64,000 nt of DNA from Candidatus Omnitrophota bacterium (GTDB lineage Bacteria > Omnitrophota > Omnitrophia > Omnitrophales > Aquincolibacteriaceae). Each line of letters begins with the position of its first letter. The first letter of the stretch is position 1. The notes below the pieces were generated by a model. It searched no databases, was not told the DNA's origin, and saw only the letters and a list, made by a program, of their open reading frames with translations. Below, in pieces: positions 10,257 to 47,485 of the stretch. The stretch spans positions 12,090-76,089 of the forward strand of contig JAHFHG010000002.1 of the NCBI GenBank assembly GCA_023247035.1, in the 5' to 3' direction. The translations under genes and the position numbers were made by a program.

Positions 10257-10482
10257 GTCTGCGAAAGCTGGAGGCGCCTCTCGTAGAGCGAGGAATCGCC
10301 GCGAAAAGTTCGCAATCCTAATTTCGGCAGGTATCGCAGGGCCGGATTGAAACTCCCGCGCCGAAATAACGTAGGAAATCGCCTTACGGTTGCTTAAAAC
10401 CCCCGAAAGGAACTTTCCATTTTCAAAATCACCCCGTATACTTGATTCAGAGAGAGAGGATTTTCGTAAACGATAAAGCCAG

Positions 10483-11130: not shown

Positions 11131-11137
11131 TTTCAGA

Positions 11138-11615: not shown

Positions 11616-12638
11616 ATGGCAACTGAGAGGCAGCTTCATGCCTGGCTGATTGTTTTTTTGGCCTGTTTTTCCTGCACCATTTTGTTATGGAATTACTTTT
11701 TCAATTCCGCCGAGCCTCTGGACCGAACCATCACAAGCAACATGATTTTTCTGATGGGGTTGTTGTTTTCCGTCTCGACTTCGCTTTGGATCCGATCTCT
11801 GGAGAAGGGCAAAGATCTGGCCGAAAGGGCGGCTCAGGAATCCCAGGCAAAACAGAGGAAGCTTGAAAAGATGTACCGGGAACTTCAGGAGAGCGAAGAG
11901 AATCTGCGCCGGGCGAGCAAGACCGCGCTGATGGGCGAACTGGCCATCGGCCTGGCCAATGAGCTGAACAATCCTTTCGGAGTGATTCTCGGGTTCGCGC
12001 GGTCGGCCAGAAAACAGGGCGCCGAATCGGAATCCTTGAAGCACGCCCTTCATATTATTGAGCATGAAGCCGAGCAGTGCTCCCAGATCATCAAAGATCT
12101 TATGACCTTTTCTTCCTGTAAAGAAATCGTCACCAAACAAAAATTTTCTCTCGGCCCGCTGATCGATGAAGCGGCCTCCTACGTTCTCTCGAATCAAAAC
12201 GGATATTCGATTCAATATGCCAGAGAGCTGGAGACGGAAGATATGGACCTGACCGCAAACCGGAACCAATGCTACCAAATGCTTGTGCATCTTATGAAGA
12301 ATGCGGTCGAGGCGATTCAGGACAACAGTTTCGGCCCTCAGGAAGGCGTCCTCCGCATTCATGCGAAAAAATACCGGGAGAAGGATGAGCCCTGGCTGGA
12401 AATCAGAGTGGAAGATACGGGCATCGGCATTCCCCCCTCCATTCGCTCGCGTATCTTCGAGCCCTTTTTTACAACGAAACATGCCCGCCGAAGAGTGGGG
12501 CTGGGACTGGCCATTGTCCAGGAGGTGGTCAACCGGCACCGGGGCGTTATCACAGTTGAGAGCCAGGCAGGCCAGGGAACAAGCATCGGCGTGGCATTGC
12601 CTGCGGGAGATGATCCCTATGCCGGGCCTGGAGCCTAA
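11616..12638 (+). CDS. Sensor histidine kinase (2 TM helices, HisKA, HATPase_c)
   Basis: H-box ELNNPFGVILGF, N-box HLMKNAVEA, G1 DTGIGIP and G2 GLGLAIV. Confidence 0.8.
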   Translation: MATERQLHAWLIVFLACFSCTILLWNYFFNSAEPLDRTITSNMIFLMGLLFSVSTSLWIRSLEKGKDLAERAAQESQAKQRKLEKMYRELQESEENLRRASKTALMGELAIGLANELNNPFGVILGFARSARKQGAESESLKHALHIIEHEAEQCSQIIKDLMTFSSCKEIVTKQKFSLGPLIDEAASYVLSNQNGYSIQYARELETEDMDLTANRNQCYQMLVHLMKNAVEAIQDNSFGPQEGVLRIHAKKYREKDEPWLEIRVEDTGIGIPPSIRSRIFEPFFTTKHARRRVGLGLAIVQEVVNRHRGVITVESQAGQGTSIGVALPAGDDPYAGPGA

Positions 12639-24158: not shown

Positions 24159-24505
24159 AATCAAAACAGACGAAGGCGGTTTTCATTGCGCTGGTTTTGT
24201 CCCTCGGATTTATTTCTAACTTTCCGCTTGCGGCGCAGGCGGCGGGGGAGGGAACGACGGGGGATTATTTCGTCGATATCGGAACGAAGTTCGGCAGGGG
24301 CCTTTGGAACACGGTTTCAAGTCCGGCCGAGATCCCCTGCACGATCACGGCGGATATTCAAAATCAGGGGGGCGTCGGATTTTTCAGCGGTTTTGGAAAG
24401 GGAATCTTGTTTATGCTGCGCCGCATTCTTGTCGGAGTCACCGAAGTCGGCACGTTTATCATTCCGATGGGCGCGACGATTCCTGCTGTTTGCAGTTCGA
24501 AATAA
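24155..24505 (+). CDS. Small exported hypothetical protein
   Basis: Signal peptide MKSKQTKAVFIALVLSLGFISNFPLAAQA. Sits between cbiA and cobQ. Confidence 0.4.
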   Translation: MKSKQTKAVFIALVLSLGFISNFPLAAQAAGEGTTGDYFVDIGTKFGRGLWNTVSSPAEIPCTITADIQNQGGVGFFSGFGKGILFMLRRILVGVTEVGTFIIPMGATIPAVCSSK

Positions 24506-24511
24506 ATACGA

Positions 24512-26041
24512 ATGAAAAAAGCTAAAAGCTTGATGGTGCTCGGCACGGGTTCCGGCGTCGGCAAGTCCTTTGTGGCCGCAGGGCTCTGCCGTTTGCTTTC
24601 CAATTCCGGATTTCGCACGGCCCCTTTCAAGGCGCAAAATATGTCCAACAATTCTTACGTGACGGAGGAGGGCGGAGAAATCGGCCGGGCCCAGGCCGTG
24701 CAAGCGGAGTGCGCCCGGGTCACGCCTCATACGGATATGAATCCGGTGCTTTTAAAACCGGCCTCGGACAACGGCTCTCAAGTGATTTTGCAGGGAAAAT
24801 CGATCGGGCATTTTAAAGCCCGCGAATTTTATTCTCAAAGGGAACGGATCGCAAAGGCCATCCGCGAATCTTACGAACGCCTGTCCGCTTCTTATGAAAT
24901 GATTATCTTAGAAGGCGCGGGAAGCCCGGCGGAAATCAATCTGAAAAAAAATGACCTCGTCAATATGCCGATGGCCCGGCTTGCAGGCGCGCGCTGCATT
25001 CTTGTCGGCGACATTGACCGGGGCGGTGTTTTCGCTTCCCTGATCGGGACGCTGAGCCTGCTGGAGGCTGAGGAACAGGAACGGATCGCCGGATTTGTGA
25101 TCAATAAATTCCGCGGCGATTTCTCGCTTCTTGAAGACGGCCTAGACTTTTTAGAGGAGCGGACGGGAAAAAAAGTCTGGGGCGTGCTTCCTTACGATCG
25201 CGATTTGTGGATCGAGGAAGAGGACGCGCTTGCGGTGGAGAATACGAATTTTCGTGATCCAGATAAACAAAAACTTGATAAACTTGATATCGCCGTCATT
25301 TTGCTGCCGCGGCTTTCCAATTTTACGGATTTCGAAATCCTCAAACACGATCCTTCCGTTCAGCTCCGTTATATCAAAAAACCCGAAGAAGTGGGGGAGC
25401 CTGACCTTTTAATTTTGCCCGGCACGAAAGCGACGCTTGCCGACTTGGCGTACCTTAAGGAAAAGAGATTGGATACAAAGATTCTGGATTTTGCGGATCG
25501 AGGCGGCAGGATCCTCGGCATTTGCGGGGGCTATCAAATGATGGGAACGCGCCTTCGTGATCCGCACGGTTTTGAGGAAAGGAATCAAGGGGAAATCGAA
25601 GGCCTTAAGCTGTTTAAAATGGCCACGGAATTTTATCCTGAAAAGGTGTTGCGAAAGGCCGAAGATTTTGTCGATTCGGAAATTTTCGGCGCGCGCGTTT
25701 CGGGAAAACTGGAGTGTTACGAAATCCATATGGGGCAAAGCACGCTTGAAGAGTCTTATCAACCGTTCGGAACTTGCGGCGCTATCCATCCTTCAGGAAA
25801 AATATTGGGCACGTATTATCACGGATTATTCGACAGCGGGGAATTTCGCGAGTCCTTTTTGAATGCGCTCGCTCAAAGCGCGGGGAAGCGGAGAGCCGGC
25901 GGAGGGCATTTACAATCTGCAGGCCAACTCAAGGAAATTCATTATGAGCGTCTCAGCCGGCTTCTTTTGCAGCGCCTTAATCTGAATTTATTAAGCGAGG
26001 CGTTGGGGATTACGGAATTTCATGCGGTTCCTCAGGCGTAG
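24512..26041 (+). CDS. cobQ: Cobyric acid synthase
   Basis: SLMVLGTGSGVGKS start and a GATase-like C-terminus (ICGGYQMMG). Confidence 0.9.
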   Translation: MKKAKSLMVLGTGSGVGKSFVAAGLCRLLSNSGFRTAPFKAQNMSNNSYVTEEGGEIGRAQAVQAECARVTPHTDMNPVLLKPASDNGSQVILQGKSIGHFKAREFYSQRERIAKAIRESYERLSASYEMIILEGAGSPAEINLKKNDLVNMPMARLAGARCILVGDIDRGGVFASLIGTLSLLEAEEQERIAGFVINKFRGDFSLLEDGLDFLEERTGKKVWGVLPYDRDLWIEEEDALAVENTNFRDPDKQKLDKLDIAVILLPRLSNFTDFEILKHDPSVQLRYIKKPEEVGEPDLLILPGTKATLADLAYLKEKRLDTKILDFADRGGRILGICGGYQMMGTRLRDPHGFEERNQGEIEGLKLFKMATEFYPEKVLRKAEDFVDSEIFGARVSGKLECYEIHMGQSTLEESYQPFGTCGAIHPSGKILGTYYHGLFDSGEFRESFLNALAQSAGKRRAGGGHLQSAGQLKEIHYERLSRLLLQRLNLNLLSEALGITEFHAVPQA

Positions 26042-29850: not shown

Positions 29851-30020
29851 GGCGGAGCCGGCTTCCGCAACGGATCTTTTGCCTTCGCCGGATTTTCAAT
29901 TCTTTCTAACATTCAGGATCATTTTCAGTCTTCGGCTCAAAAGCGCATTCTGCGCATTTGATCTTACAAAACGAACCGCTATAATTAATGAAACACGGGC
30001 GGCAGGAAATCGAACCCTTC

Positions 30021-33000
30021 ATGAAAACCATCTCTTTATTCCAGAAACCCAGCGCGATTTTTTTAATCTTTTCTTTAAGCCTTTCCCAAAGTCCCTCGTA
30101 TGCCGCTGCCGCGCCGGCGCCTCCGCTGGCGGTTTCTGAGCGCTCCCGGGCGCTTCTTTTTCTTCCCGAAGAACTTGGCGAGATCGAAGAATCCTTTCAG
30201 GGATCGAACGGAAAAACCGTGATCTTCATTCAAGACGCCCACGATTCCCTCGAAGCGCAGGAAAATATCGCCAAGACTATTCAATACCTGGTGGACAAGT
30301 ACGGGGTGAAGACTGTTTTTGAAGAAGGCTATGAAGGTCCTGTTCCCACGGATGATTATTTCGGCTTCATCAAAGATCCGTCCGTCAAAGAGAAAGTTTC
30401 TTACTTTTTATTAGATAAACTCCGCCTCGGCGGCGCGGAATACGCACACATCAACCGCTTTCACAACTTGTCATTCCCGCACGCGTTAAGCGGGAATCCA
30501 AATTTTAGGTCCCCGATAGAAACATTCGGGGACGACAAAAAACGTGTCGATTTCAAACTGATTGGGGCAGACAATATAAAGTTACATCTTGAGAATATCG
30601 ATTGGTATCGCCAGAATGCCAAGCATAAAGAAGAAACTGGAAGAGATTTGACTATTCTGCAAAATGAAATCGACAAACTTGCCAACCGGTATTTTCCTAA
30701 GGAACTCAAAGAATGGATGAAGCTTAAGAAAAGGTTTGATGAGAAACAAATTGATCTTTTGGATTATTTAAAGCGGACAATACAAGTCCCTCATCGAGAA
30801 TCCATAGACCATAAACTTTACCCCAATCTTTCGCTTCTCCTTCAAGCAGAACACACTCAAGACAAAGAAGTCCTAGAGAAAGTGAAAACCATTGAAGCCA
30901 AGATTCTTTTCGAGGAAATCGATTCGTTGGAAAACGCCGCCGCCGGCCCATTCCTACAAAATGGAACAGACCGGAAAATCTTCCAATATTACAAAGGAAT
31001 AAATCTTCTCAAAAGACTCAACGAGATTGAGATTACGCCCGCTGAATATGAGGCGGTCAAAGCGCAGCTTCAACATCTCAGCACCCAGGAACTGGCCCAA
31101 TTTATTGTCCAGCAAACGAATAAATCCATCGTCCTTTCCAAACGATGGGAGGAAAATATTGAAAGCGCCATTCGGTTTTATCAAATCTCACGAGCCAGAG
31201 ATTCTGCGATTGCCGAGCGACTGAATGATTTTCTTAAAAATCATGATGAAAAAGTGGCTGTCCTTGTCTTTGGAGGATTTCATAAAGAGAGGATTACAGA
31301 ATTGTTGAGAAAGAAAGGACTCCCTTACTATATAGTTTCTCCTCGAATAATGAACGTCGACAATAAGCATAAGGAACTCTACGCGCATTTAATGACAAAG
31401 GGATATTCGCTTTTCCCCGTTGCGGCAAATGTTGCTAAGGCAGCGCGTTTAGCAGGAGAGATCGAGCTCGCGGAAATGGGCGGCCAGAACGCAAAGTCAG
31501 AACTCCGAGCGTACCATGCGGCAATCACTAACATTGTTTCTTCATTGGTCTCCAATCGACCCAATCAAACATCTCGAGAACTGCTCGATCGTTTGATTAA
31601 CGGACGATTGATACACGAAGTTCTAAAAGTATCCAAACAAGCAATGGGAAAACGCCGATCCGAACTAAGAAGTAAAGAATCGGATTTTGCTTTAAGAGAA
31701 AAACGCCGTGATTATCTCAAGCGGCTAATGAATCAAGAAAATAAGCAATGGACGTTGGATGAGTTAGCAAACGCTACAGGTCAATCAACAGGACAGATTG
31801 TTAAGGATTTGCGATATTTGAATCTTTTTAAGCCCTCAAATCACCTAAATTTAGATGCCGAACGCATAGACCGAAGAAGACAGTGGGGATTACCAGATTA
31901 TTCTGACCTCGATAAGCTTTTACCTCGCTTGGATGAAGAATTTGCATATCTTCATGGAGAGGCTCTTTTTAATTTTTTAGCTCAAAAAGGCCGCGAGAAT
32001 GACCCCGTAAGCATGGAAGCGGCTATTTACGGCTTCTATAAATTTGTTGGAGAAAAAACCCCCGGTAATATTTCAGAACGAGGGCGATTGCTTGGTGAAC
32101 GCATTTATCACTATCTGAGGTTAAGAGAAAGTATGCCTTCTGACGGCCTGCGTCGAAATCCAGATGTTGAGTTCGATATTGGTATGGCAGAAAAAAGGAA
32201 GCGGGAGTCACGGCTTCCAAAATTTGGAAATATAAAAACAAGGAGGCCGAAGAAGAAAGTTTCTTTTTCGGAAGCACAGCAAATTATGGAAGAAAAAAAT
32301 TTACATTTAGATCAATCAATCGCATTCGTTGCGTTGTCCACGGCAGAAAATGAAACTTTATTTCGAGCGCTTAAATCAAGCGAATTGGAAGAGTCCGAGC
32401 GAAGACAAATTTATGATTATTTGATTCAGAAGCATGTAGGGTTTGTCGGCTGGTGGATCAAACATAAGATGCCGCCTTGGTATTTTGAACATTTTAACTT
32501 CGAAGAACTTTTAGCTTTTGGCCAAATTGGCCTTATGAAAACGATTGAAAGATATGATTTCAAAATGGGGCGGCGCTTTACCAGTTATGCCGAATGGTGG
32601 ATTCGCCATTCTATCCAACGCTCCATAGAGAAAAAAACACATAAATCTTTAAATGTCAGGCGTGATGAGGATAGCCCGGAGTGGATTGATACTTTGTCGG
32701 ATTCAAAAGATCAATCGGAAGAAGAATTATGGCCGGAACTATTTTCCAGTCTTAGGCATCTCGATAGTCGGTCTCGCATTATGTTGAGCTTGCGTTACGG
32801 GATTGGATCAGTAAGAACATACAATCTTCGAGAAATTGGCTTAATGTTTGGTGTAACTCACGAGCGTGTTAGACAAATTACAGAAAGAGCAGTTGAAAAG
32901 TTAAAACGCTTGGTTGGAAAAGTAACGGTTGATGATTCTTCTCAAGACCATACCGATGTTTTTTTATTCGAGGCTATGGAGTTAGAGCCAGAGAATCCAC

Positions 33001-36000
33001 TTTTCAAGCCACTAAGCCATCTCGGAGTTAAAAAGCTTGACCGGATTCGAGAAGTTCTTTCAAAAGAAAATCGCTTCAACTCGGAAATGCTGATGAGGAT
33101 TTTTAGGTCACGCGGCCAGTATGTGATAGCTCCATCGAAATATTTATGGGGTCTGCCTGCGGGTTTGCTTGAAACCGGCGGTGACACTTCCCATCATTTT
33201 GGATCGTGGAATGAAGAAGGTGGAAGACATAACATAGATTTACAAAAACCCAAAAAGATTCATTTTTCCAACGCACTCACAACCACAACCGAAATCATAA
33301 AAAGGTATCCTTATGCTCGGTATCTACTGCCTCCTGAAGAACAACTATTGCTGGCCTCTCAGGCTCAAGGAGAAAGGAGCCGATTCTATGCTTTGGGTAA
33401 GACATTGCAGTGGATTGGACTTTCTCCGCAAGATTTTATTATTTGGCTTGTTGAAAATAAAAAATATTTAGATCAAGAAATCGTTGATTTTATCGCACAA
33501 TCACCACTTTCTAAACGTCCTCGATACGAGCTAACGGCATCCCGCACAGGTGAGCATCTTCATGGGTCTTTACCAAGACCACGTACTGACCGAAAGATTG
33601 CAACGAAATGGATTTCAACTGAAGAAACCAGCTACACGCTAATCACACCTGCTGAATTGGCGGACCGCTTCCCTTCTGCCGAACCCTTCTTGGATAAACT
33701 CGAACCTCAATTACTTCTTGAGGCGGATTCGTCCGAGCATGATGAAATTAAATACTATTCTTTTGTTGAAGATGGACATCATACAAAAATTCTAATAAGG
33801 ATCAATAAAAGAACCGGCGAAATCCAAAGTCCTCATGATGGCCCAATCGGTTTTAGAAAGGAAATTTTGGATTTTGTAAGAAAAGGTGAGTTTGGCAATA
33901 AGCAAAAGCCTCCTGTTACCGCGCCTTTTGAAATGCACGCCGGATCACGGCATTTTATTTATTTCGGAACGATGGGGAAAGGTTCCATTGGCTTGAGTAT
34001 GAAGGGAGTGAAACCTAACACGCGTGTATCAGGAAGCGCTGTTCATTTGGAGCATGCTCCTCTTGGAATGGGGCCGCAATGGCTTTTAAGACTCACTGTT
34101 CATTTGAAAAGACCAAGAGTTGTTTATGCGAGATTCAAACGCTCTGGAACCCGCTTAGGTTTATTTAAAAAATCCCCTCAAACTTATATCGGAGCTTTTG
34201 TCAAACTTGGGAAATGGAATCAGGAAAAAATCCAGCCATTCCCTGAAAATGAAATCGAAATTACCGCGAGTTCCAAAGGACGTTTGGAACTTGGAAGCAA
34301 TGGCGATGGAGAGCGGATTGTTATTCACTTACCACTTTTACCCAAAGATCATAAAGTTTTAATTCGAAAAGTCCGCAATCAAGAAGATGGACAACAGCTC
34401 TTGGTCGTTCATACCCGCAATCCTGCTTATCGATATAGAAAATTTTATTATCGATTCACGAATCGTGGCTATCACACCCGAAGATACCACGAGGAAGTAA
34501 AGGACATAAGTCCCACGGCTAGAAGGAAGCTTAGCTATGAAGAAATTGCAAAGGCACAAGAAGATTTGAGAAGCCGAGAAGGAGCAGAGGCAAACTTATG
34601 GCGCGATCCCGAAAAGATTGCTTATGAGCTTGACCTATTCGACGCTTATTATCTTGTTTCGGAAGTTCAAAGAATAAACGCTTCTTTAGTTGCTCAAGAC
34701 ACAGCTAATTTGCCGCCTCTCGAAATAGACACCTCAAAGATTGTTGAGCTGCCGACTCCGGCTTACGATCAAGTAGGAGACGTTTATCATGCTGTTCCAG
34801 AATCTTCTGAGCGACCGGAGAAATCCGAGAAACCAGTCAAACCTAAACCATTATCCCCTTTAAGACTTGCTCAAAAAAGATTGGAAGAAGCTGAAAAAAA
34901 AACATTAGCTGAACGTTTGAAGGTTGGCTTTCGAGATGTGGGAGAAAGCGGTCGGTTTTTAGATTTGGGCGCAGGAAAGGGTGATTTAACCGCTGAACTT
35001 GCTGGACAATTTCAAGGTGGGGTTGCAGTCGAAATAAATGAAGATCGAGTCGAGCAGCTACGGCAGAGAAAAATTCCAAATCTTAATATTTGGGACATGG
35101 ATTTTTTTGATTATATGGAGATGGCGATTAAAGGGAATCAGCTTTTTGATGCGATTCTCATTTCACATGCTCTTTTATTCATTAAATTTGATCGCCGGGA
35201 CGCTTTCTTAAAAGATGTTCTATCAAGACTTAAGCCGAATGGAAAATTAGCGATTATTTTAAATGGCAGTAAAATTGAAGAGAGAAACCAAGTTCAGTTG
35301 CGAGCAAAGCTCATGAGAAAGCATGAGGCGCTAGCAGGAGACAACCCATCAACCAATATTGAAAGCAAACTGCGACAAATCGGCTATGGGGTACAAACCG
35401 AAAGAGTCAGAATCATTCATGAGACTCCTTCCAGAGACGAAATGATTTCTATTGTAAAAGCAATATTGCCACGCGAAGACCGTTTTCGTCTGTCGAATAT
35501 CACTGGATTTGTCGATTCAGTCCTGAAATTACCTGGAGAAGAAAAGTACCGCCTCTATGTTGATCAAGATATTTTATGGATAACACATCCTCGTTCTGAG
35601 GTTAGAAAGCAAGAAAATGTATTTGCAATGGTGTCTGTCAACGATTGGCAAAACTTTAATCGAACTAATCAGAATACCGAGGCTACGGCCACCAAAGCCG
35701 TCGTTTTTATAGATGGTTCCGTCGATAGCAAAGATGCCAAGCAGCGGGCGGAAGAATTAGCGGTGCTGGCCGCAGGTAATCCGAACCGAACGATTGTGGT
35801 TTATAATGCGGACAAAGTTTTTAAAAATAAAGGCGGTGAAATGGCGGAACTTTTAAAGTCGTTTGGTCTCGCCAATGTCAAGTTCGCTGCGGGTGAGTTG
35901 TCCGAAGCCCTCAAGCCCTACCAATTCCGGGATCAAGTTGATTTGGTGCACTACTCGGCAAGCGAAGAGGAGGCTGTTTTTGTTCAAGCCTCCGTTGGGA

Positions 36001-36209
36001 AATGGCTGGCGCAAAAACTGACCCGATTTGTCGGAGGGCCCGGCGCCTTAGGATACGGAATAAAATATTTGCAGGCTGTGAAATTGGGCAAGCCTGTGGA
36101 AGGTATCACGCCCGAGAACGGCTACTACGCCGTTTCCCCAGGCGCTTCGGAGTGGATGCGAAGCCTTTATCGAGCTCGGTTCGCGACCGTTTTCGCTCAA
36201 GCGGCGTGA
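30021..36209 (+). CDS. Giant multidomain protein (about 2060 aa): signal-peptide-like N-terminus, TraB/GumN/TIKI-like domain, sigma-70 region 2 plus region 4 module, central unknown region, class I SAM-methyltransferase motif, unknown C-terminus
   Basis: Uninterrupted 6.2 kb frame in AT-rich DNA. Motifs IFIQDAHDS...VLVFGGFHKERITELLRKKGLPYYIV; GQIGLMKTIERYDFKMGRRFTSYAEWWIRHSIQRSI; LREIGLMFGVTHERVRQITERAVEKL; FLDLGAGKGDLT. Confidence 0.7.
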   Translation: MKTISLFQKPSAIFLIFSLSLSQSPSYAAAAPAPPLAVSERSRALLFLPEELGEIEESFQGSNGKTVIFIQDAHDSLEAQENIAKTIQYLVDKYGVKTVFEEGYEGPVPTDDYFGFIKDPSVKEKVSYFLLDKLRLGGAEYAHINRFHNLSFPHALSGNPNFRSPIETFGDDKKRVDFKLIGADNIKLHLENIDWYRQNAKHKEETGRDLTILQNEIDKLANRYFPKELKEWMKLKKRFDEKQIDLLDYLKRTIQVPHRESIDHKLYPNLSLLLQAEHTQDKEVLEKVKTIEAKILFEEIDSLENAAAGPFLQNGTDRKIFQYYKGINLLKRLNEIEITPAEYEAVKAQLQHLSTQELAQFIVQQTNKSIVLSKRWEENIESAIRFYQISRARDSAIAERLNDFLKNHDEKVAVLVFGGFHKERITELLRKKGLPYYIVSPRIMNVDNKHKELYAHLMTKGYSLFPVAANVAKAARLAGEIELAEMGGQNAKSELRAYHAAITNIVSSLVSNRPNQTSRELLDRLINGRLIHEVLKVSKQAMGKRRSELRSKESDFALREKRRDYLKRLMNQENKQWTLDELANATGQSTGQIVKDLRYLNLFKPSNHLNLDAERIDRRRQWGLPDYSDLDKLLPRLDEEFAYLHGEALFNFLAQKGRENDPVSMEAAIYGFYKFVGEKTPGNISERGRLLGERIYHYLRLRESMPSDGLRRNPDVEFDIGMAEKRKRESRLPKFGNIKTRRPKKKVSFSEAQQIMEEKNLHLDQSIAFVALSTAENETLFRALKSSELEESERRQIYDYLIQKHVGFVGWWIKHKMPPWYFEHFNFEELLAFGQIGLMKTIERYDFKMGRRFTSYAEWWIRHSIQRSIEKKTHKSLNVRRDEDSPEWIDTLSDSKDQSEEELWPELFSSLRHLDSRSRIMLSLRYGIGSVRTYNLREIGLMFGVTHERVRQITERAVEKLKRLVGKVTVDDSSQDHTDVFLFEAMELEPENPLFKPLSHLGVKKLDRIREVLSKENRFNSEMLMRIFRSRGQYVIAPSKYLWGLPAGLLETGGDTSHHFGSWNEEGGRHNIDLQKPKKIHFSNALTTTTEIIKRYPYARYLLPPEEQLLLASQAQGERSRFYALGKTLQWIGLSPQDFIIWLVENKKYLDQEIVDFIAQSPLSKRPRYELTASRTGEHLHGSLPRPRTDRKIATKWISTEETSYTLITPAELADRFPSAEPFLDKLEPQLLLEADSSEHDEIKYYSFVEDGHHTKILIRINKRTGEIQSPHDGPIGFRKEILDFVRKGEFGNKQKPPVTAPFEMHAGSRHFIYFGTMGKGSIGLSMKGVKPNTRVSGSAVHLEHAPLGMGPQWLLRLTVHLKRPRVVYARFKRSGTRLGLFKKSPQTYIGAFVKLGKWNQEKIQPFPENEIEITASSKGRLELGSNGDGERIVIHLPLLPKDHKVLIRKVRNQEDGQQLLVVHTRNPAYRYRKFYYRFTNRGYHTRRYHEEVKDISPTARRKLSYEEIAKAQEDLRSREGAEANLWRDPEKIAYELDLFDAYYLVSEVQRINASLVAQDTANLPPLEIDTSKIVELPTPAYDQVGDVYHAVPESSERPEKSEKPVKPKPLSPLRLAQKRLEEAEKKTLAERLKVGFRDVGESGRFLDLGAGKGDLTAELAGQFQGGVAVEINEDRVEQLRQRKIPNLNIWDMDFFDYMEMAIKGNQLFDAILISHALLFIKFDRRDAFLKDVLSRLKPNGKLAIILNGSKIEERNQVQLRAKLMRKHEALAGDNPSTNIESKLRQIGYGVQTERVRIIHETPSRDEMISIVKAILPREDRFRLSNITGFVDSVLKLPGEEKYRLYVDQDILWITHPRSEVRKQENVFAMVSVNDWQNFNRTNQNTEATATKAVVFIDGSVDSKDAKQRAEELAVLAAGNPNRTIVVYNADKVFKNKGGEMAELLKSFGLANVKFAAGELSEALKPYQFRDQVDLVHYSASEEEAVFVQASVGKWLAQKLTRFVGGPGALGYGIKYLQAVKLGKPVEGITPENGYYAVSPGASEWMRSLYRARFATVFAQAA
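30470..30536. repeat. Second copy of the double-hairpin unit, located inside the coding sequence of the giant ORF (read through in frame)
   Basis: TTGTCATTCCCGC...GCGGGAATCC...GTCCCCGATAGAAACATTCGGGGACGAC aligns with 14389-14445. Confidence 0.5.
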
Positions 36210-40101: not shown

Positions 40102-40980
40102 ATGAAAGAAAAACAAATACTGACTACGACAAAAGCCATTAAGTGGTCCGTTGCCACCGCGCTTTTTCTGGTGTTTTTAAAATTCGCGACCGGGATTCTC
40201 ACTCATTCGATGGCCATTTTGGCCTCTGCGCTGGATTCTACAATGGACCTGGCGATTTCGATCGTCAATCTGATCGCGGCCCGGGAAGCGGCGAAACCTC
40301 CGGATGAAGATCACGCCTACGGCCACGGGAAAATCGAAAGCCTCGCCGGCCTTTTGCAGAGCTTTTTGATCGGCGTGAGCGGGCTTTATGTCATTTTTGA
40401 ATCGGTGAAGCGGCTGATCTACGGGACGTATATTCAAATTATTCCCCTGGGGATCGGCGTGATGCTTCTCGCAATGCTGATCAGTCTGAGCCTTGTCTGG
40501 CGGCTCAGGATGACAGCCCGGGAAAATAAATCCCTGATCCTTTCCACCGAGACGCTCCATTACGTCACGGATGTGACCACCAACGGCGGGACGGTGGTGG
40601 CTCTCTTGCTTGTCCAGTTTACCCATTTTCCGGTTTGGGACCTCGGGGTTTCCATTGCCGTATCCTTTTATGTTTTTAGAATGGCCTACCGGATTTTACG
40701 CCAGGCCGTCGATGAGCTCTTGGACCGCAGCCTTCCTCCCGTGCCTAAAGAAGAAATCGAAAAGATTATCCAGGAATTCAGCCCGTCCGTCGTGGGGCTC
40801 CATAATTTCCGAAGCCGCCAGGTCGGCGCTCAAATTTTTTTGGATTTTCATATCGAAATCCGCGGGGAAGATGATTTCAAAAAAGCCCACACGATGACCG
40901 AATCCCTCATCGCGCGCATCCAGACGCATTATCCCGGCGCGGATGTCACGGTCCATTATGATCCGGAAGGAGAGATCTGA
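40102..40980 (+). CDS. Cation diffusion facilitator (CDF) family metal efflux transporter
   Basis: 6-TM core with HSMAILASALDSTMD ... DEDHAYGHGKIE and a C-terminal cytoplasmic domain. Confidence 0.8.
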   Translation: MKEKQILTTTKAIKWSVATALFLVFLKFATGILTHSMAILASALDSTMDLAISIVNLIAAREAAKPPDEDHAYGHGKIESLAGLLQSFLIGVSGLYVIFESVKRLIYGTYIQIIPLGIGVMLLAMLISLSLVWRLRMTARENKSLILSTETLHYVTDVTTNGGTVVALLLVQFTHFPVWDLGVSIAVSFYVFRMAYRILRQAVDELLDRSLPPVPKEEIEKIIQEFSPSVVGLHNFRSRQVGAQIFLDFHIEIRGEDDFKKAHTMTESLIARIQTHYPGADVTVHYDPEGEI

Positions 40981-41654
40981 TGCGGATTCTTCTTGTGGAA
41001 GATGAAAAGAAAATGGCGAGTTTTATCGAGCGCGGGCTTAAAGAAGAAGGCTACGCGGTGGACATTGCCCTGGACGGGGAGAAAGGTTTGGAATACGTAT
41101 CGATCAACGAATATGACGTCATTATTTTGGATATTTTGCTGCCCAAAATCAACGGCTTGGCCCTTTGCGAAAAAATCCGCAAGGCCGGTTCCCGACTCCC
41201 CATCCTGATGGTGACGGCCCGGGATTCGGTCCAGGATAAAATCCGCGGCCTGGATCAGGGGGCCGACGACTATTTAACGAAGCCCTTTTCGTTTGACGAG
41301 CTCCTGGCCCGCATCCGGGCCCTTTCAAGGCGCCCGCGCGAGCTCCAGGAAAAATCCGAACTCCGTTCGGGGGACCTTTCTTTAAATCTCCTGACTCGGC
41401 GTGTGTTGATCGGTAAAAATGAAGCGGCGCTTTCTCAAAAGGAATTTGCGCTTTTGGAATACCTGATGAAGCGCAAAGGCGCGGTCGTTTCCCGCACTCA
41501 AATCGCAGAGCACGTTTGGGACATCCATTTTGATCCGATGAGCAACACCATTGATGTCTACATTAATTTCCTGCGCAAAAAAATCGACGGGGATCGAAAA
41601 CAAAGCCGGATTGAAACCCTTCGAGGGGCGGGCTACCGCCTGTTAGCGGAATGA
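40980..41654 (+). CDS. OmpR-family response regulator (REC plus winged-helix Trans_reg_C)
   Basis: MRILLVEDE...DVIILDILLP...LTKPF and a C-terminal LSQKEFALLEYL...GAGYRL. Confidence 0.85.
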   Translation: MRILLVEDEKKMASFIERGLKEEGYAVDIALDGEKGLEYVSINEYDVIILDILLPKINGLALCEKIRKAGSRLPILMVTARDSVQDKIRGLDQGADDYLTKPFSFDELLARIRALSRRPRELQEKSELRSGDLSLNLLTRRVLIGKNEAALSQKEFALLEYLMKRKGAVVSRTQIAEHVWDIHFDPMSNTIDVYINFLRKKIDGDRKQSRIETLRGAGYRLLAE

Positions 41655-43120
41655 GACGGTTTCAATCCGTTAAATTACGGCTCACGCTTTGGTACGCTTT
41701 TGTTTTGACGGTCCTTCTTTCTTTATTCGCCTTTCTTATGTACGCCGAATTTGCCCGCGCCCTTTACCGGGATACGGACAAAAATCTTTTCTATCAGGCT
41801 TTGGAAGTCGAGCAATCCTTGAGGCGATACTGGGAGAAAATGAATCCGTCCGCCAAGGCCGGGCGGCTGGATCTAAAACCGGCTTCTTCGCTCGAAACAG
41901 TATCAAGGCTTCAAGAGGTTTTGGAAAAATGGAAACGGGAAAACCGTTTGCTGGGCCGCAGCAACCTTATGATCCGCCTGGAGGCTATGGACCACAAGCG
42001 CCTTCTTTCGAACCTTGGCGGCTGGCAGCGGGAGATTATCTTTCCGGATTTTGAGCGCGATTCCTTTTTTATGGAAAAAGGCGAATCGTTTCAGATTATC
42101 CATTTCCAGAATCAGCCCTTTCGGCTTTATTACCGGCTTGTCCGGTTCCGTACCGAGCCGGTCCTAGTGATCCAAACGGCGGATTCCGTGCAGGAAATCA
42201 AAAGGGCCTTGCAGCGGCTGGGTTTCATTATTCTCATCTCGATTCCGGGCGCTGTCGGCGCGGCTTGCATGATCGGATGGTTTTTTATGAAACGCGCGTT
42301 CTGCCCTTTAGATTCTATCGTCCGCAAGGCGCGCGAAATCACGGGAGATCATCTTGAGGGCCGGCTCCCCAGAACTTATGCGGGGGATGAACTGGACCGG
42401 CTGGCCGAGACGCTTAATGAGATGATGGACCGGCTGGAACTTTCCACCCGCGCCATTCAGGATTTCAGTTCCAATATTTCTCACGAATTAAAAACGCCGC
42501 TGGCCATTATTCGCGGAGAGATTGATCTTGCGCTCAGGAAGACCCGCTCGAATGAAGAGCTTATTCAAACCCTCGGGGTGATCGAAGGGGAGGTCAACGA
42601 GTTAATCCGCCTTGTCGACGATTTGATGCTTCTTGTTAAAAGCGACGCCAAACAAATCCATTTTGAGAAAAGAAAGGTCGCGCTTACCGATATTTTGAGG
42701 CCCGTCGCTGAACGGTTCAGGGAAAGAATCCAGACCAGAAAAATCGATTTTGCGTTGAATTTCATCGACACACCTGAGGTCGAAGGCGACGAGGTTTATC
42801 TCAAAAGGCTGTTTAGCAACCTGCTGGATAATGCCATTAAATTTACTTCCGAGGGAGGGCGTATCGGGATCGAACTCAAGAAATCAAGCCGGAATGCTTA
42901 CATTAAGATTTCCGATAACGGGATTGGGATTGAACCGCAAATGCTAACCAAAGTTTTTTCCCGTTTTTATAGGACCGACCAGGCAAGGGCCCATGAAGGA
43001 GCCGGCCTCGGGTTGAATATTGCCAAAACCATTTGCGAGGCCCATCAGGGAATCATTGAAGTTGAGAGCGCTCTCGGCGCTGGAACCACGGTTACGGTTT
43101 GCCTGCCTCTTCAGCATTAA
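41651..43120 (+). CDS. Sensor histidine kinase (2 TM, HAMP, HisKA, HATPase_c), heavy-metal sensor-like
   Basis: SHELKTPLA H-box and DNGIGI / GAGLGL G-boxes. Overlaps the response regulator stop. Confidence 0.85.
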   Translation: MRRFQSVKLRLTLWYAFVLTVLLSLFAFLMYAEFARALYRDTDKNLFYQALEVEQSLRRYWEKMNPSAKAGRLDLKPASSLETVSRLQEVLEKWKRENRLLGRSNLMIRLEAMDHKRLLSNLGGWQREIIFPDFERDSFFMEKGESFQIIHFQNQPFRLYYRLVRFRTEPVLVIQTADSVQEIKRALQRLGFIILISIPGAVGAACMIGWFFMKRAFCPLDSIVRKAREITGDHLEGRLPRTYAGDELDRLAETLNEMMDRLELSTRAIQDFSSNISHELKTPLAIIRGEIDLALRKTRSNEELIQTLGVIEGEVNELIRLVDDLMLLVKSDAKQIHFEKRKVALTDILRPVAERFRERIQTRKIDFALNFIDTPEVEGDEVYLKRLFSNLLDNAIKFTSEGGRIGIELKKSSRNAYIKISDNGIGIEPQMLTKVFSRFYRTDQARAHEGAGLGLNIAKTICEAHQGIIEVESALGAGTTVTVCLPLQH

Positions 43121-43225: not shown

Positions 43226-43579
43226 ATGAAAATTACAGGATTGCTTTTAAAGCCTGATTTGGAAAATTTAAAAGACGATTTTCTGAAACTCCAAAAGGAA
43301 CTAGCGGCCTTTCAACAGCCTTCCGATTTCATTCGGGAACTTAGCGCGCTTGTTCAAAACGGATTAAAGGAAATGGAGCAGAATCTTTTTGCTTTAGACC
43401 TTTATAATAATGTGGCCTCGCCTGAAAATGCGGATCCTCAAAAATTTTACTCGAATTTTCGGCGTCTAAAACTCGGCCTCCATTTCGCCCGCCGCCGAAT
43501 GAGACGTATGATTTCCACCCGCGTGCGAATCCAAAAAATACAGGAGAGACGTTCCCGTGTTTCAACATTTGCTGCATGA
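43226..43579 (+). CDS. Hypothetical protein
   Basis: ORF only; immediately upstream of the EIIA-like gene. Confidence 0.3.
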   Translation: MKITGLLLKPDLENLKDDFLKLQKELAAFQQPSDFIRELSALVQNGLKEMEQNLFALDLYNNVASPENADPQKFYSNFRRLKLGLHFARRRMRRMISTRVRIQKIQERRSRVSTFAA

Positions 43580-44063
43580 ACAGTCGATCCGGACCCATTT
43601 TGAGGCGCCCAATCGCGAAGCCGCGTTAGCCGAGCTCATTGCGCTCCTGCCTTCCCGGTATTTGAGTTCCCAGCAAAAGGGGAAGATACTCGATTTGCTT
43701 CTGCAGCGGGAGAGTTTGGGGACGACCGCGATGGGCGAGGGGATCGCTTTACCGCACTGCTCGATTCCCGATATCGCTTTTCCTTTTGCCTCACTTGGGA
43801 TCAGCCGGAAAGGAATCTATTATCCTTCCTTAGACGGCGCCCCCGTTTACTTGCTCACCCTGATCCTCTTTCCGAGCGGCCAGGGATTTACCACATTTCA
43901 GCGTTACCGTATGCTGCGTGAAGTCGAGATCCTGTTCCGCGACCGGTTTTTAAAAGAACGCCTCAAGATATGCGAGTCGCCGCAGGAAGCTTATGAAATC
44001 ATCTTGCGGGAATCCTCGCATATTTCTGAAATTAAAAAGCTAAGCAATTCCTCAAGAGCCTAA
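43557..44063 (+). CDS. PTS EIIA type-2 domain protein (nitrogen-regulatory PtsN-like)
   Basis: RESLGTTAMGEGIALPHC with the active-site His context. Confidence 0.7.
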   Translation: MFQHLLHEQSIRTHFEAPNREAALAELIALLPSRYLSSQQKGKILDLLLQRESLGTTAMGEGIALPHCSIPDIAFPFASLGISRKGIYYPSLDGAPVYLLTLILFPSGQGFTTFQRYRMLREVEILFRDRFLKERLKICESPQEAYEIILRESSHISEIKKLSNSSRA

Positions 44064-44167: not shown

Positions 44168-45553
44168 TTGCGCCTTTATTCTTTAGTCCCGCCGAAAATG
44201 GCCGACATAACTCTTATGCGAATTTTGTCGGCGATAACCAGCGAGCCGTTAGTTGTTTTGATGAAGCGAGCCCTTTCGCGTTTTAATTATGAATGGGAGG
44301 ACGTGGAAAACGGCCTCGACGCGTTTCAGCGGGTCATGACCCGGAAATTTGATCTCGTGATCCTGGAATTTGACCTGCCTAGGATGAGCGCCCTTGAGAT
44401 TTTGCGCCGGTTCGGATCGCTTGAACATTTTAACGCCCCGCCCGTCATGGTCCTTACACTTACCGAAGACCAGCGGCTCCAAATTGAATCCGGCCATTTT
44501 CACAGAACGGAGATCGTCGCGCGGCCGATGGCGATCCGGAAATTTGTCGGCAGGGTCCAGCAAATCTTGCACCAGAGCGTGCGCGTTGCGTGTTTAGGCG
44601 GGGGAACGGGGCTCTTTACCCTCCTGTTAGGATTGAAGTCCCTTTCCGGCATCAGCCTCGCCTCCATTGTAAGTATGAGTGACGACGGCGGCTCCACGGG
44701 AAAATTAAGAGATATGTTCGGAATTTTGCCTCCCGGCGATATCCGCCGCAGTCTCGTCGCTCTTTCCACGGCGCCGGATCTTCTCAATGAGTTGATGCAA
44801 TACCGTTTCAAGCGCGGGGAGGGCCTCGCCGGGCACACGCTGGGCAACTTGTTCTTGACCGCGCTTTCCGAAATGAGGGGATCGATGCCGCAAGCCGTAA
44901 AGGCGATCAGCGAAATCCTCAATATTCAAGGAGAGGTGATCCCTGTCACGGACACGGTCAATACCTTGAAGGCCAGACTCGAAAACGGTTCGACCCTTGA
45001 AGGGGAGCGCCGCATTGACCTTTTCGAGGGGCACGATCCGCGCGTAAGGATCAGCGAGCTCTGGCAGGAGCCTGCCGCAGAGGCCAATCCCGAGGCCTTG
45101 GAAGCGCTTTTTAATGCGCGTTTTATTATTTTAGGCCCCGGCGACCTTTTCACCAGCGTGATCTCCAATTTAATCGTAGGCAGCATTGCCGAAGCCATTT
45201 GTTCCAGCCGCGCCAAAAAAATTTATATTTGCAATGTAATGACCAAACCGGGCGAGACCACGGATTTCAGCGTCGGGGATCACGTCCGGGAAATCCTCAA
45301 ATACCTGAAAAAAGATGCGCTGGATTATGTCCTGTGTTCGTCCACTGCATTTTCAGAAACGTCGCTTGAAAAATACGCCGAGAAAAGTCAGATTCCGGTC
45401 GTGGAAAATTTTCCGGATCAGCTTCGCAGCCTCACCAAGGCGGAGGTGTTGTGGGCTGACATGGGATCGGAAAGCGAACTCGTCCGGCACGACAGCGTCA
45501 AATTAGCGGCCGAATTGAAGAAAATTTTGGAAAAAGAAAACAGGCACCTTTAA
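44168..45553 (+). CDS. YvcK/CofD-family protein (gluconeogenesis factor-like) with an N-terminal degenerate receiver-like domain
   Basis: VACLGGGTGLFTLLLGLK...SMSDDGGSTGKLR is the YvcK signature. The first 130 aa are CheY-like, with Glu at the phospho-acceptor position (DLVILEFDLPRM). Confidence 0.75.
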   Translation: MRLYSLVPPKMADITLMRILSAITSEPLVVLMKRALSRFNYEWEDVENGLDAFQRVMTRKFDLVILEFDLPRMSALEILRRFGSLEHFNAPPVMVLTLTEDQRLQIESGHFHRTEIVARPMAIRKFVGRVQQILHQSVRVACLGGGTGLFTLLLGLKSLSGISLASIVSMSDDGGSTGKLRDMFGILPPGDIRRSLVALSTAPDLLNELMQYRFKRGEGLAGHTLGNLFLTALSEMRGSMPQAVKAISEILNIQGEVIPVTDTVNTLKARLENGSTLEGERRIDLFEGHDPRVRISELWQEPAAEANPEALEALFNARFIILGPGDLFTSVISNLIVGSIAEAICSSRAKKIYICNVMTKPGETTDFSVGDHVREILKYLKKDALDYVLCSSTAFSETSLEKYAEKSQIPVVENFPDQLRSLTKAEVLWADMGSESELVRHDSVKLAAELKKILEKENRHL

Positions 45554-45556: not shown

Positions 45557-45580
45557 GGAGCGGGCGCGCCGCTTTTTTTA
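45557..45580 (+). terminator. Rho-independent terminator candidate (GC stem followed by TTTTTTTA)
   Basis: GGAGCGGGCGCGCCGCTTTTTTTA directly after the yvcK-like stop. Confidence 0.5.
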
Positions 45581-45760
45581 TTTGCTTTCTGGTTGTAAAC
45601 TCGTATGATACGAAACAGATCACGGCTAAAATGAAGAAGCGAGTGGCCCTTCAAAAATAGCCCTCATTGTTTTTTTGATTCGCAAAAAATTTCCAACATA
45701 AGGACTTCGCTTTTCAATTGCCCATTCACATCCTAAAAGAGAATCCGCTTCTTTATTGAG

Positions 45761-47485
45761 ATGAGAGGCCCGGAACCGGTTTTTATAAGAGAGCAAGTAC
45801 GTTTTCAAATCGAAAAACGTATTGAGGCCCTGTTGAAAGGTTACCGGCAGAATTTGGGGATCCTGGGCCCCGAAGGGATGGGAAAAACTTTTATTCTGTC
45901 CTCCCTTTTCCGGACGTTCTCCCTGCAGTCCCAATTGATCCCCATTTACGTTCACGCCGAGGCGCTTCATTTCAACCATTTTATCGACCGCTGGCTCAAG
46001 GGCGTGATTTCCGGCCTTCTTACGGGCCTAAGTGAACAGAAAATTTCATCTCAGGGAGAGAATTTTTTTGAGGCGGCGGAGCCGTTTGTCCCGAAGACCG
46101 TAGAGAGAATCAAACATTTGAAGAAGCAGCTCTGTCGTGAAAAAAGTGCGCCGCTTCTTAAAGAGCTTTTTTCTCTGACGGGAGTTGCGGCCCGGGAAAC
46201 GGGACGAAAAATCATTTTAATGATCGATGAGTTTCAAGCCCTTTCGAGGCTTCCGGTGGCAAATCCTTACGCCTTATTGGGACATGAAATCATGATCCAG
46301 CCGAATACGCTTTTTATGGTGGCCAGTTCCCAGGCCGCCAAGGCCCACGAGATTTTCCGCGAACACCTGACCCTGCTTTTTGGAAATTTCGAAGTCATCA
46401 AACTGGTTTCTTTTAGTTTCTCGCAGGCCTCGGCCTTTTTAACCAACCGCCTGCCTTTTCTTTCCCTGACGAACTCGCAAAAAAGGTTCCTCATCCGTAT
46501 GACGGATGGCTGCCCTGCTTATTTGGAGATGCTCTCTGACCGCCTGGCTTCTTTTTTCCCCCGCCGGCAGCGGGAGGCATTTTTTCTCTCGGAGCAAGAC
46601 TTCGCGCCTGCAACCGACGAAGATATCCTGACCGCTTTCCAGGATGAGCTTTTCGATGAGAAAGGCCGGCTGGCTTTGAGGTTTGAAAGGCGCCTTGAAA
46701 ATTGCAAGCATCTTTCAAAAGATCCCGCCGCTTTCGTTCAGGCCCTTTGGGCAGTCGCCGAAGGCAGAAGAAGAGTTTCCGAGATTGCTTTTTCCATTCA
46801 GCGAAAATCGGCCGAGACTAAAAAGATTCTAAGCCGTCTTGTCGAAGAAAATTTTCTTTTTAAACAGGGGGCGTTTTATTCCCTTGAAGATCCGCTGTTC
46901 CAGTTTTGGCTCCGCTGGATTGATCACCGAAAGCAAAGTCTGCCGATTCAGGATGCGGAGCGCTTTCGGGAAGAATTCTACCGGGTCCTCGCCGGAGAGT
47001 TTGAAAAAAGCGAAGCGGAAGAAAATACCGGCGTCGCGGCCAAGGCGGAGGCTTTATTGAGGGAATTTCGTAATGATGTCCTGGAAATCGACGACCGCAA
47101 GATCCGCTGCCCCCAATTTTCCGAAATTTCTATGCGGCCCGCCCACGGCAGGTTTTTTGCGCTTGTCGCCCGCAGCCCCAAAGAAAAATGGATATGCCAC
47201 ATCCTCCGCGAATTAGCGCGCGAAGAAGATGTCTTGTCCCTGTTGGAAGAATCCAAACGTTACCGCCGGAGCGCGCACCGCAAGATTCTGATTACGGTTG
47301 GCGGCATCGAGCAGAATGCGAAGCTTATGGCGCAGGAAGCAAAGGTCCAGCTTTGGGACCTCAGAAGCTTCAACCGTTTGCTGGACCTCTACAATCAACC
47401 CAAAATCGTTCTCTTATCCGAACCCGAAAAAGAGTTTGATGGACCAGCTCTGGGCCCCTTGGCGCAAAGCTTACATTCGGCCTAA
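45761..47485 (+). CDS. AAA+ superfamily ATPase (Arch_ATPase/DUF234-like)
   Basis: Walker A GILGPEGMGKTF and Walker B ILMIDEFQ. Confidence 0.6.
   Translation: MRGPEPVFIREQVRFQIEKRIEALLKGYRQNLGILGPEGMGKTFILSSLFRTFSLQSQLIPIYVHAEALHFNHFIDRWLKGVISGLLTGLSEQKISSQGENFFEAAEPFVPKTVERIKHLKKQLCREKSAPLLKELFSLTGVAARETGRKIILMIDEFQALSRLPVANPYALLGHEIMIQPNTLFMVASSQAAKAHEIFREHLTLLFGNFEVIKLVSFSFSQASAFLTNRLPFLSLTNSQKRFLIRMTDGCPAYLEMLSDRLASFFPRRQREAFFLSEQDFAPATDEDILTAFQDELFDEKGRLALRFERRLENCKHLSKDPAAFVQALWAVAEGRRRVSEIAFSIQRKSAETKKILSRLVEENFLFKQGAFYSLEDPLFQFWLRWIDHRKQSLPIQDAERFREEFYRVLAGEFEKSEAEENTGVAAKAEALLREFRNDVLEIDDRKIRCPQFSEISMRPAHGRFFALVARSPKEKWICHILRELAREEDVLSLLEESKRYRRSAHRKILITVGGIEQNAKLMAQEAKVQLWDLRSFNRLLDLYNQPKIVLLSEPEKEFDGPALGPLAQSLHSA

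Follow-up and report, generated by a model that had tools for sequence, protein, structure and literature searches.

YvcK, also called GlmR, is a widely conserved and poorly understood checkpoint of cell-envelope precursor synthesis, which binds UDP-N-acetylglucosamine (UDP-GlcNAc), acts as an accessory uridyltransferase and stimulates GlmS, thereby tuning the supply of peptidoglycan precursors. YvcK/GlmR is known to be regulated by RapZ/YvcJ, by the Ser/Thr kinase PrkC, through acetylation and by UDP-GlcNAc itself. Here we describe a YvcK protein from the Omnitrophota, which are uncultured and often ultra-small bacteria, that carries a domain with the fold of a response-regulator receiver (REC) in front of its core. 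The gene is found on the forward strand at 44216..45553 of a 64,000-nucleotide stretch of Candidatus Omnitrophota contig JAHFHG010000002.1, referred to below as the window, and encodes 445 amino acids followed by a stop codon. We consider it probable, though by no means certain, that this is a GlmR/YvcK-type protein whose receiver has decayed into a phosphorylation-independent pseudo-receiver, kept as a constitutive structural or regulatory module.

The best described relatives, GlmR/YvcK of Bacillus subtilis and Listeria monocytogenes (CuvA in mycobacteria), share with the window protein the core fold, the Asp-Asp pair, the UDP-GlcNAc-binding Arg and the proximity of cell-wall synthesis genes, and the window protein has a Ser at the position of the PrkC phospho-site. 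They differ from it in that the window protein belongs to an Omnitrophota lineage, has a 118-residue N-terminal pseudo-receiver and is encoded without an adjacent rapZ/yvcJ or whiA gene, with one relative (locus L007) having an abutting Ser/Thr kinase gene. A second point of comparison is given by the pseudo-receivers of FrzS, ChxR and HP1043 (PMC12632262, PMC4395418), which likewise match PF00072, have the (beta-alpha)5 fold, show replacement of Asp by Glu and of Lys by Arg and, like the window domain, presumably act free of phosphorylation, but which are not joined to a YvcK/CofD-type enzyme as partner domain. In PleD (REC-GGDEF), CheB, RpfG and PorX a receiver is also placed N-terminal to an enzyme domain, whereas the window protein has a UDP-sugar-binding YvcK as its output and its phospho-switch appears to be gone. 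A full-text literature search gave no paper joining YvcK/CofD with a receiver or a response-regulator output, nor any joining Omnitrophota with YvcK; CofD and YvcK are not mentioned in the 2025 pseudo-receiver review (PMC12632262), nor is a REC-YvcK combination in PMC4395418. The architecture is annotated by public pipelines, yet uncharacterised, and it is a case of two well-known parts newly combined, not a new kind of system, with nothing mechanistically surprising about it so far.

The N-terminal domain (residues 1–118; 44216..44569, forward strand) was recognised through Pfam, through receiver matches in the PDB, and with AlphaFold2 and Foldseek. Residues are numbered here in the 445-residue frame starting from the ATG at 44216 (MRILSAITSEP...), with Pfam positions given in the 461-codon frame of the maximal open reading frame (ORF). 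Pfam Response_reg (PF00072) matched positions 30–130 with E=2.8e-9 and 37.6 bits (gathering cut-off 30.2), many response-regulator models of NCBIfam matched the N-terminus, and phmmer against PDB sequences returned the receivers of PmrA, ArlR, PhoP, RR468 and CheY, with a best E-value of 6e-9. The phmmer alignments placed 'FDLVILEFDLPRM' over 'FDLILLDLELPMM' and 'VARPM' over 'LIKPY', having Glu at the acceptor Asp and Arg at the conserved Lys. An AlphaFold2 model computed from 81 sequences of the family reached a mean predicted local distance difference test (pLDDT) score of 89.7, with about 91–97 over residues 1–90 and 81–87 over residues 91–120, and displayed the (beta-alpha)5 topology, with strands b1–b5 at residues 2–6, 26–30, 47–51, 77–81 and 98–102 and helices a1–a5 at residues 10–19, 33–42, 59–68, 84–92 and 107–117. 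The first strand of YvcK follows at 122–128 in this model, leaving a linker of only about four residues after helix a5. When the N-terminal domain was compared with the PDB using Foldseek, RR468, YycF, PhoP and DivK were matched with template modelling (TM) scores of 0.78–0.85 and a root mean square deviation of about 2 Å over some 119 columns, and among the matches was also the constitutively active PhoB D10A/D53E receiver (2jb9), carrying the same kind of substitutions.

To assign equivalent residues in the active site, the domain was aligned in MAFFT to CheY of E. coli and to the OmpR-type regulator encoded in the window. The Mg2+-binding acidic pair, D12/D13 in CheY, corresponds to I7/T8 in the motif 'SAITSEP' (codons 44234..44239), the phospho-acceptor D57 to E51 in 'ILEFDLPRM' (codon GAA, 44366..44368), the aromatic switch residue Y106 to I100 and the conserved Lys K109 to R103 (codon CGG, 44522..44524), all on the forward strand; Thr87 is kept as T81, and the conserved Pro110 as P104 directly after R103. 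Where a functional receiver has the catalytic quintet DD, D, T/S, K, the window protein has I, T, E, T, R. Judged by its sequence, the domain is a pseudo-receiver with the REC fold and not a functional receiver, and because of the Glu at the acceptor position and the destroyed acidic pocket, Asp phosphorylation of the window protein would be very unlikely. The domain agrees with the definition of a pseudo-receiver given in the review by Bourret et al. (PMC12632262), that is, computationally recognised as a receiver without key phosphotransfer residues, and D-to-E and K-to-R are the commonest replacements in bacterial pseudo-receivers (PMC12632262). With E51 it is also an aspartate-less receiver (ALR), defined by a phospho-acceptor position that is not Asp (PMC4395418), but an acceptor other than Asp occurs in only 47 of the 149 family members, and the family as a whole is one of pseudo-receivers without being uniformly ALR. 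Two further positions stood out, R108 in helix a5, which was invariant, and R22, which was found in 77 of 81 relatives; neither is conserved in generic receivers, and their retention outside the canonical set points to an interface particular to this family, plausibly one formed with the YvcK domain.

The YvcK/GlmR (CofD-like) core comprises residues 122–445 (44579..45550, forward strand), as assigned with PF01933, TIGR01826 and Foldseek. The Pfam CofD model (PF01933) matched positions 140–414 with E=1e-86 and the NCBIfam YvcK model (TIGR01826) gave 315.5 bits against a cut-off of 196, while Foldseek superimposed the core on the YvcK homologues 2hzb (BH3568, TM score 0.94) and 2o2z with TM scores of 0.94–0.95 and a root mean square deviation of 1.5 Å, the sequence identity to solved YvcK homologues being 37–38%. 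The pair D156/D157 (44681..44686, forward strand; 'SMSDDGGSTG' on 'VTVADDGGSSG') corresponds to the catalytic D38/D39 of GlmR from B. subtilis, needed for its uridyltransferase activity (PMC13046274). In the R424-H-D-S427 segment (45485..45496, forward strand; 'VRHDS' on 'LRHNA' of BH3568), R424 is the equivalent of GlmR R301, which binds UDP-GlcNAc, and S427 that of T304, the PrkC phospho-site (PMC13046274). Among 81 relatives D156 and R424 were invariant, D157 was kept in 79 and S427 was Ser in 71. With catalytic and ligand-binding residues intact, the core looks functional. A preliminary description of this locus had proposed just such a YvcK/CofD core fused to an N-terminal REC-like module, and that architecture was borne out, both domains scoring above their Pfam cut-offs. 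Its CheY-like fold and its Glu at the acceptor position were likewise found, and the phosphorylation-independence it suggested is supported by the Glu acceptor and the destroyed acidic pocket, as far as sequence can tell; it was also right in that the acidic pair is replaced but had placed that pair on 'LVVLMKRA', which is helix a1, instead of on I7/T8.

A search of 5.8 billion proteins gave more than 100 clusters of about 445 residues annotated with PF00072 plus PF01933, and every organism-named cluster was Candidatus Omnitrophica/Omnitrophota. Starting a second search from P0111, a member with a canonical receiver, returned the same family, with one partial match labelled Nitrospinae; the NCBI pipeline names the members 'UDP-GlcNAc-binding protein YvcK'. 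Surveying YvcK homologues in this manner showed that 149 relatives carry the REC fusion, nearly all of the named ones being Omnitrophota, and the fusion is a lineage trait of this phylum, not a one-off. Residue counts were made over 149 full-length REC-YvcK members in CheY numbering, with finer conservation determined over 81 relatives; a family-specific REC hidden Markov model mis-scored P0121 and P0122 (C-terminal matches), which were classified by eye. The canonical D/E-D-D-T/S-K set was retained by only four of the 149 (P0100, P0102, P0111 and P0287), and position 13 was Asp in only 18. The acceptor was Asp in 102 members, Glu in 31 and another residue in 16, the Lys position held Arg in 64 and Lys in 55, and Thr/Ser87 was kept in 123, while the aromatic switch residue was Val or Ile in 60 of the 81 relatives.

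When the YvcK core was used to build a neighbour-joining tree from Kimura distances, with membrane-anchored YvcK proteins as outgroups, the REC-YvcK proteins formed a single clade on a long branch away from them. The canonical members P0100, P0102 and P0111 fell into one subclade, groups with D-P-D-S-K and I-G-D-S-K came next, and the window protein belonged to a large clade with T/S-x-D/E-T-R. Within that clade Asp and Glu alternated many times at the acceptor position between close tips, a pattern fitting selection for an acidic side chain and not for phospho-Asp chemistry. Since only four of 149 members keep a canonical active site, the domain looks like a real response-regulator receiver that has decayed, and the canonical members P0100, P0102 and P0111 probably work as response regulators with an enzymatic output.

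The course of events that we propose is that an ancestral Omnitrophota YvcK would have gained a genuine receiver, functioning then as a response regulator with enzymatic output, and that the phospho-switch would then have been lost in the window's clade, the N-terminal domain now being a constitutive structural or regulatory module. By analogy, the pseudo-receiver would probably mediate dimerisation or the docking of a partner. It may pack rigidly on the Rossmann domain of YvcK through helix a5, which bears the family-invariant R108, with the acidic residue (Asp or Glu) kept opposite R/K103, perhaps in a salt bridge holding one conformation. The module would sit where the closest relatives have a two-helix membrane anchor, and would operate without an adjacent RapZ. 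The core would do the job of GlmR, binding or making UDP-GlcNAc and/or stimulating GlmS, thereby balancing the carbon flow into peptidoglycan. Several points weigh against this proposal. The role in dimerisation or docking is drawn by analogy; 68% of the family retains an acceptor Asp and Thr87 has largely persisted, such that some orthologues could be inefficiently phosphorylated; and the neighbour-joining tree is approximate, carries no support values and has a rooting that depends on the chosen outgroup. Furthermore, the activity of GlmR (uridyltransferase versus activator of GlmS) is debated in Firmicutes, and to our knowledge it has never been assayed in didermic non-Firmicute lineages.

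The genes flanking REC-YvcK in the window, from the OmpR-type regulator to the AAA_16 gene, are in its orientation. Upstream are an OmpR-type response regulator (40980..41654), a HAMP histidine kinase (41651..43120), an ORF for a basic 117-residue protein without a Pfam match or a significant NCBIfam match (43226..43579) and, overlapped at its start by that ORF, a gene for a 168-residue PtsN-like enzyme IIA (EIIA-2) of the phosphotransferase system (PTS; 43557..44063). The EIIA keeps the phospho-His motif GIALPH, with H67 (codon 43755..43757) aligned to the phospho-His of E. coli PtsN, and it matched PF00359 with E=3e-18 and 66.6 bits (cut-off 27), but reached only 55.1 bits with the PtsN equivalog model TIGR01419, below its cut-off of 138.7. 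Directly after the YvcK stop codon a GC hairpin (45557..45575), which together with its T-run spans 45557..45585 (forward strand), resembles a terminator, this being a pattern match only, in a region where the count of terminator-like sites was no higher than in shuffled sequence. Next downstream is a 574-residue AAA_16/ATPase_2 P-loop protein (45761..47485) with a weak C-terminal Mrr_cat-like match, followed by genes for HIT, dGTPase, GAF/HD-GYP and OmpA-like proteins and by murE with the rest of the cell-wall cluster, the murE-murF-mraY-murD genes lying about 6.6 kb downstream of REC-YvcK. The REC-YvcK gene, the 117-residue ORF and the EIIA gene are probably co-transcribed, possibly with the two-component pair included, and the AAA_16 gene is probably a separate transcription unit because of the terminator-like hairpin that precedes it. 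No riboswitch or small RNA was found near the gene in an Rfam scan of 40–50 kb.

The synteny sample for the close REC-YvcK clade was small, with about 15 distinct loci, as pattern-based scans of genome and metagenome contigs gave only six plus seven REC-type loci and otherwise picked up mainly other YvcK genes. The AAA_16 gene was next downstream of REC-YvcK in 10 of these approximately 15 loci, being absent there in L093 and L094, and AAA_16, HIT and dGTPase genes followed in most. The regulator–kinase pair was found upstream in most but not all close loci (the window, L001, L003, L011, L014, L091, L092 and L094, with only the kinase 3' end in L096). The contexts of the distant REC-YvcK loci were unrelated, L006 having a GH57 gene two genes downstream. 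In L007 a Ser/Thr kinase (Pkinase) gene at 8865–10004 overlaps the start of REC-YvcK (10001–11365) by 4 bases, recalling the phosphorylation of GlmR by PrkC in Firmicutes.

The gene order of the window resembles that of the proteobacterial ptsN-rapZ-npr genes (rpoN operon) and of yvcJ-yvcK-whiA-crh in Firmicutes in that a PTS regulator gene is found beside a regulator of amino-sugar or envelope-precursor synthesis, but it differs in that RapZ and HPr/NPr are missing and in that the EIIA is well below the PtsN threshold. Using tblastn (E<=0.01, with hand-typed query sequences), no homologue of rapZ, HPr or NPr was found in the 64-kb window. Nor was rapZ found near 24 other REC-YvcK loci (some of them duplicates, with flanks of 5–10 kb on each side where the contig allowed); HPr and Enzyme I (EI) were seen neither in the window nor beside any of the REC-YvcK genes fetched, and NPr was likewise missing beside these genes. 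The absence of rapZ noted in the preliminary description hence applied to these other loci as well. Its PtsN-like EIIA directly upstream is indeed there, as a PF00359 member with the His kept, but this protein does not reach the PtsN equivalog cut-off.

One could suppose from this arrangement that the pseudo-receiver is a docking site for the upstream PtsN-like EIIA, with the phosphorylation state of this EIIA, set by a relay like that of the nitrogen PTS (PTS-Ntr), controlling YvcK in the place of RapZ. The EIIA gene is directly upstream in the same orientation with its phospho-His kept, the small ORF, EIIA and REC-YvcK genes also occur together in L001, L014, L091, L092 and L096 (the small ORF always accompanying the EIIA gene), and an EIIA relative is found upstream in L011. 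There is precedent for PTS-Ntr control of amino-sugar synthesis, as EIIA-Ntr binds and inhibits GlmS in Salmonella (PMC5024086). However, the EIIA relative in L011 has lost its His, and, this locus counted, only 7 of the approximately 15 close loci have an EIIA gene, six of the seven (the window included) having the small ORF plus EIIA. The gene is missing from about eight of 15 (L003, L009, L010, L012, L013, L093, L094 and L097) and from all four distant REC-YvcK loci; the absence of HPr and EI near REC-YvcK genes also speaks against such a relay.

Further evidence on this question came from relatives without a receiver. The closest non-REC cores, from species-representative genomes, were 41–45% identical and belonged to YvcK proteins with an N-terminal extension of 100–125 residues, containing two hydrophobic helices ('LKWLYPGMxIKRW...') directly before the GGGTG strand. 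These were found in Negativicutes, Atribacterota, Planctomycetia, Omnitrophota and Armatimonadota (for example L016, L025, L036, L037, L053, L055 and L060, and representatives P0127–P0267). They resemble the window protein most closely in the core and have an extension of equal length, and in Planctomycetia and Omnitrophota also an EIIA gene upstream, but differ in that their extension consists of two transmembrane helices and in that HPr follows or, in Negativicutes and Atribacterota, rapZ precedes. Thus, rapZ was directly upstream in 46 of 74 non-REC loci (Negativicutes, Atribacterota and others), and in Planctomycetia and other Omnitrophota (18 species-representative loci) the membrane-anchored YvcK lay between a strongly PtsN-like EIIA and HPr. 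The order in L025:9248–15117 and L055:9232–15046 was EIIA, membrane-anchored YvcK, a GH57 alpha-amylase/4-alpha-glucanotransferase, HPr and Enzyme I, with EIIA, YvcK and GH57 confirmed by Pfam in both loci and HPr and EI in L025.

The linkage between PTS genes and YvcK is real in this part of the tree; it has parallels in the ptsN-rapZ-npr and yvcJ-yvcK-whiA-crh arrangements and agrees with the control of GlmS by EIIA-Ntr in Salmonella (PMC5024086). In Planctomycetia and other Omnitrophota the older cluster EIIA-YvcK-(GH57)-HPr-EI can be counted in favour of a PTS input. But since the membrane-anchored relatives, which have no receiver, have EIIA too, the EIIA linkage is older than the REC fusion, is being lost inside the REC clade and is not tied to the receiver; the EIIAs linked to REC-YvcK were also far more diverged from PtsN than those beside membrane-anchored YvcK. 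We consequently regard docking of EIIA on the pseudo-receiver as unlikely. Of the nitrogen-PTS control of YvcK hinted at in the preliminary description, the EIIA-YvcK synteny stood, and the link to the receiver domain did not. In the six REC-YvcK species genomes no locus for a membrane-anchored YvcK was seen among the 80 best matches, in what are incomplete metagenome-assembled genomes analysed by a pattern-based scan, a result weakly consistent with REC-YvcK having replaced, rather than joined, the membrane-anchored form.

Among the top representatives at 50% identity about seven were of the REC type, 51 of 147 had the two-helix anchor, 68 were short classical YvcK and a few were HAD-YvcK or RapZ-YvcK. 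These last fusions have either a HAD-like hydrolase domain ('IKAIIFDLDDTLFD') or a full RapZ before YvcK, and were seen in P0214, P0241, P0246, P0254 and P0265 (about 560–580 residues) and in P0244 (630 residues). The N-terminus of YvcK is accordingly a site where different modules were attached, namely a membrane anchor, REC, HAD or RapZ.

A different input was also considered, in which the pseudo-receiver would sense a small ligand, for example cyclic di-GMP (c-di-GMP), and couple a second messenger to the supply of cell-wall precursors. The c-di-GMP-binding pseudo-receiver of ShkA gives a precedent for ligand binding (PMC7010744), GlmR influences c-di-AMP levels in B. subtilis (PMC13046274), and in the window's clade the fourth gene downstream is a conserved GAF/HD-GYP gene. 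Additionally, a GAF-GGDEF gene precedes REC-YvcK and a PilZ gene overlaps its 3' end in L093, L098 and L099. This reading comes purely from gene neighbourhood, however, with no binding motif identified. Many genomes are rich in HD-GYP and GGDEF genes, and the distant REC-YvcK loci do not show the link; we find this reading distinctly improbable. The full order in L093:1759–6642 (also L098 and L099) is GAF-GGDEF, glpX (fructose-1,6-bisphosphatase), an ORF and REC-YvcK, a context mixing c-di-GMP and gluconeogenesis genes. Were the domain a non-phosphoryl input domain, reading either EIIA phosphorylation or a c-di-GMP-like messenger and replacing both RapZ and the membrane anchor, it would be the first receiver-fold domain directly controlling a cell-wall precursor enzyme, which we would not expect to be the case, although we take it seriously.

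Still less probable to us is that the N-terminal domain remains a working receiver, at least in the orthologues with Asp, phosphorylated in a branched pathway by the upstream histidine kinase. The regulator and HAMP kinase genes described above, the acceptor Asp in 102 and Thr/Ser87 in 123 of the 149 members, and the complete active site in four of them would agree with such a function. The window protein, on the other hand, has a Glu acceptor, no acidic pair, Arg for Lys and no aromatic switch residue, and at least one catalytic residue is missing in 145 of 149 members; the free interchange of Asp and Glu among near relatives would be unexpected were phospho-Asp chemistry selected. The upstream kinase moreover already has its own cognate OmpR-type regulator and is absent from several loci, and in L006, with a member having the canonical site, there is no kinase nearby.

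The start codon bears on whether the N-terminal domain is part of the protein. The maximal ORF (44168..45553, forward strand) has 461 codons with a TTG start at 44168, which was the start used in the preliminary description and proved to lie too far upstream by 16 codons. In most homologues the first residue is the Met of 'MRIL...', the usual length being about 445 residues, and several alignments with NCBIfam response-regulator models start at residue 17 of the 461-codon frame. In a 90%-identical relative (L092), indels of 2, 9 and 1 bases upstream of the ATG break the frame, and no other candidate start, including any alternative ATG, lies upstream of the equivalent of ATG 44216. As the homologues begin there, and as the upstream DNA of L092 is frame-broken without alternative starts, the sequences indicate ATG 44216 and not TTG 44168 to be the true start, with the first 16 codons of the maximal ORF being spurious. 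The approximately 45 non-coding bases before the start codon (44170..44215) are conserved with L092 ('CTTTAGTC.C.CCGAA...GCCGACATAA'), while the DNA further 5' is not; this block may be a promoter or a translational signal. That the whole N-terminal extension would be an annotation artefact, with the real protein starting at the YvcK core, is practically inconceivable and was rejected, for although those 16 codons are indeed non-coding and an internal Met (M105) is present shortly ahead of the core, residues 1–118 score above the Pfam receiver threshold, have a fold predicted at high confidence and show conservation at the protein level across 149 equally long homologues, and helix a5 runs into core strand b1, leaving no room for a ribosome-binding site or a gene boundary.

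Elsewhere in the window, a 2073-residue ORF at 29988..36209 (forward strand) lies in a low-GC island (0.41–0.43 versus about 0.51 around it) and has an odd architecture, with sigma-70 regions 2 and 4 at residues 836–973 and an S-adenosylmethionine methyltransferase domain near residues 1652–1760; it may have been horizontally acquired. A hybrid REC-GAF-HisKA-HATPase kinase (12301..14241, forward strand) and two tandem CobB/CobQ-type amidotransferase genes (22746..26041, forward strand) are unrelated to REC-YvcK.

The REC-YvcK family offers a natural series from canonical receiver to pseudo-receiver on one and the same enzymatic output, which is useful for asking how pseudo-receivers work. With the recurrent EIIA-YvcK-HPr clusters of Planctomycetia and Omnitrophota, the known connection of the PTS to amino-sugar control reaches beyond Proteobacteria and Firmicutes. 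The N-terminus of YvcK stands out as a preferred place for attaching alternative regulatory modules, and the Omnitrophota fusion offers a still unexplored way of controlling YvcK in a large phylum of uncultured bacteria.

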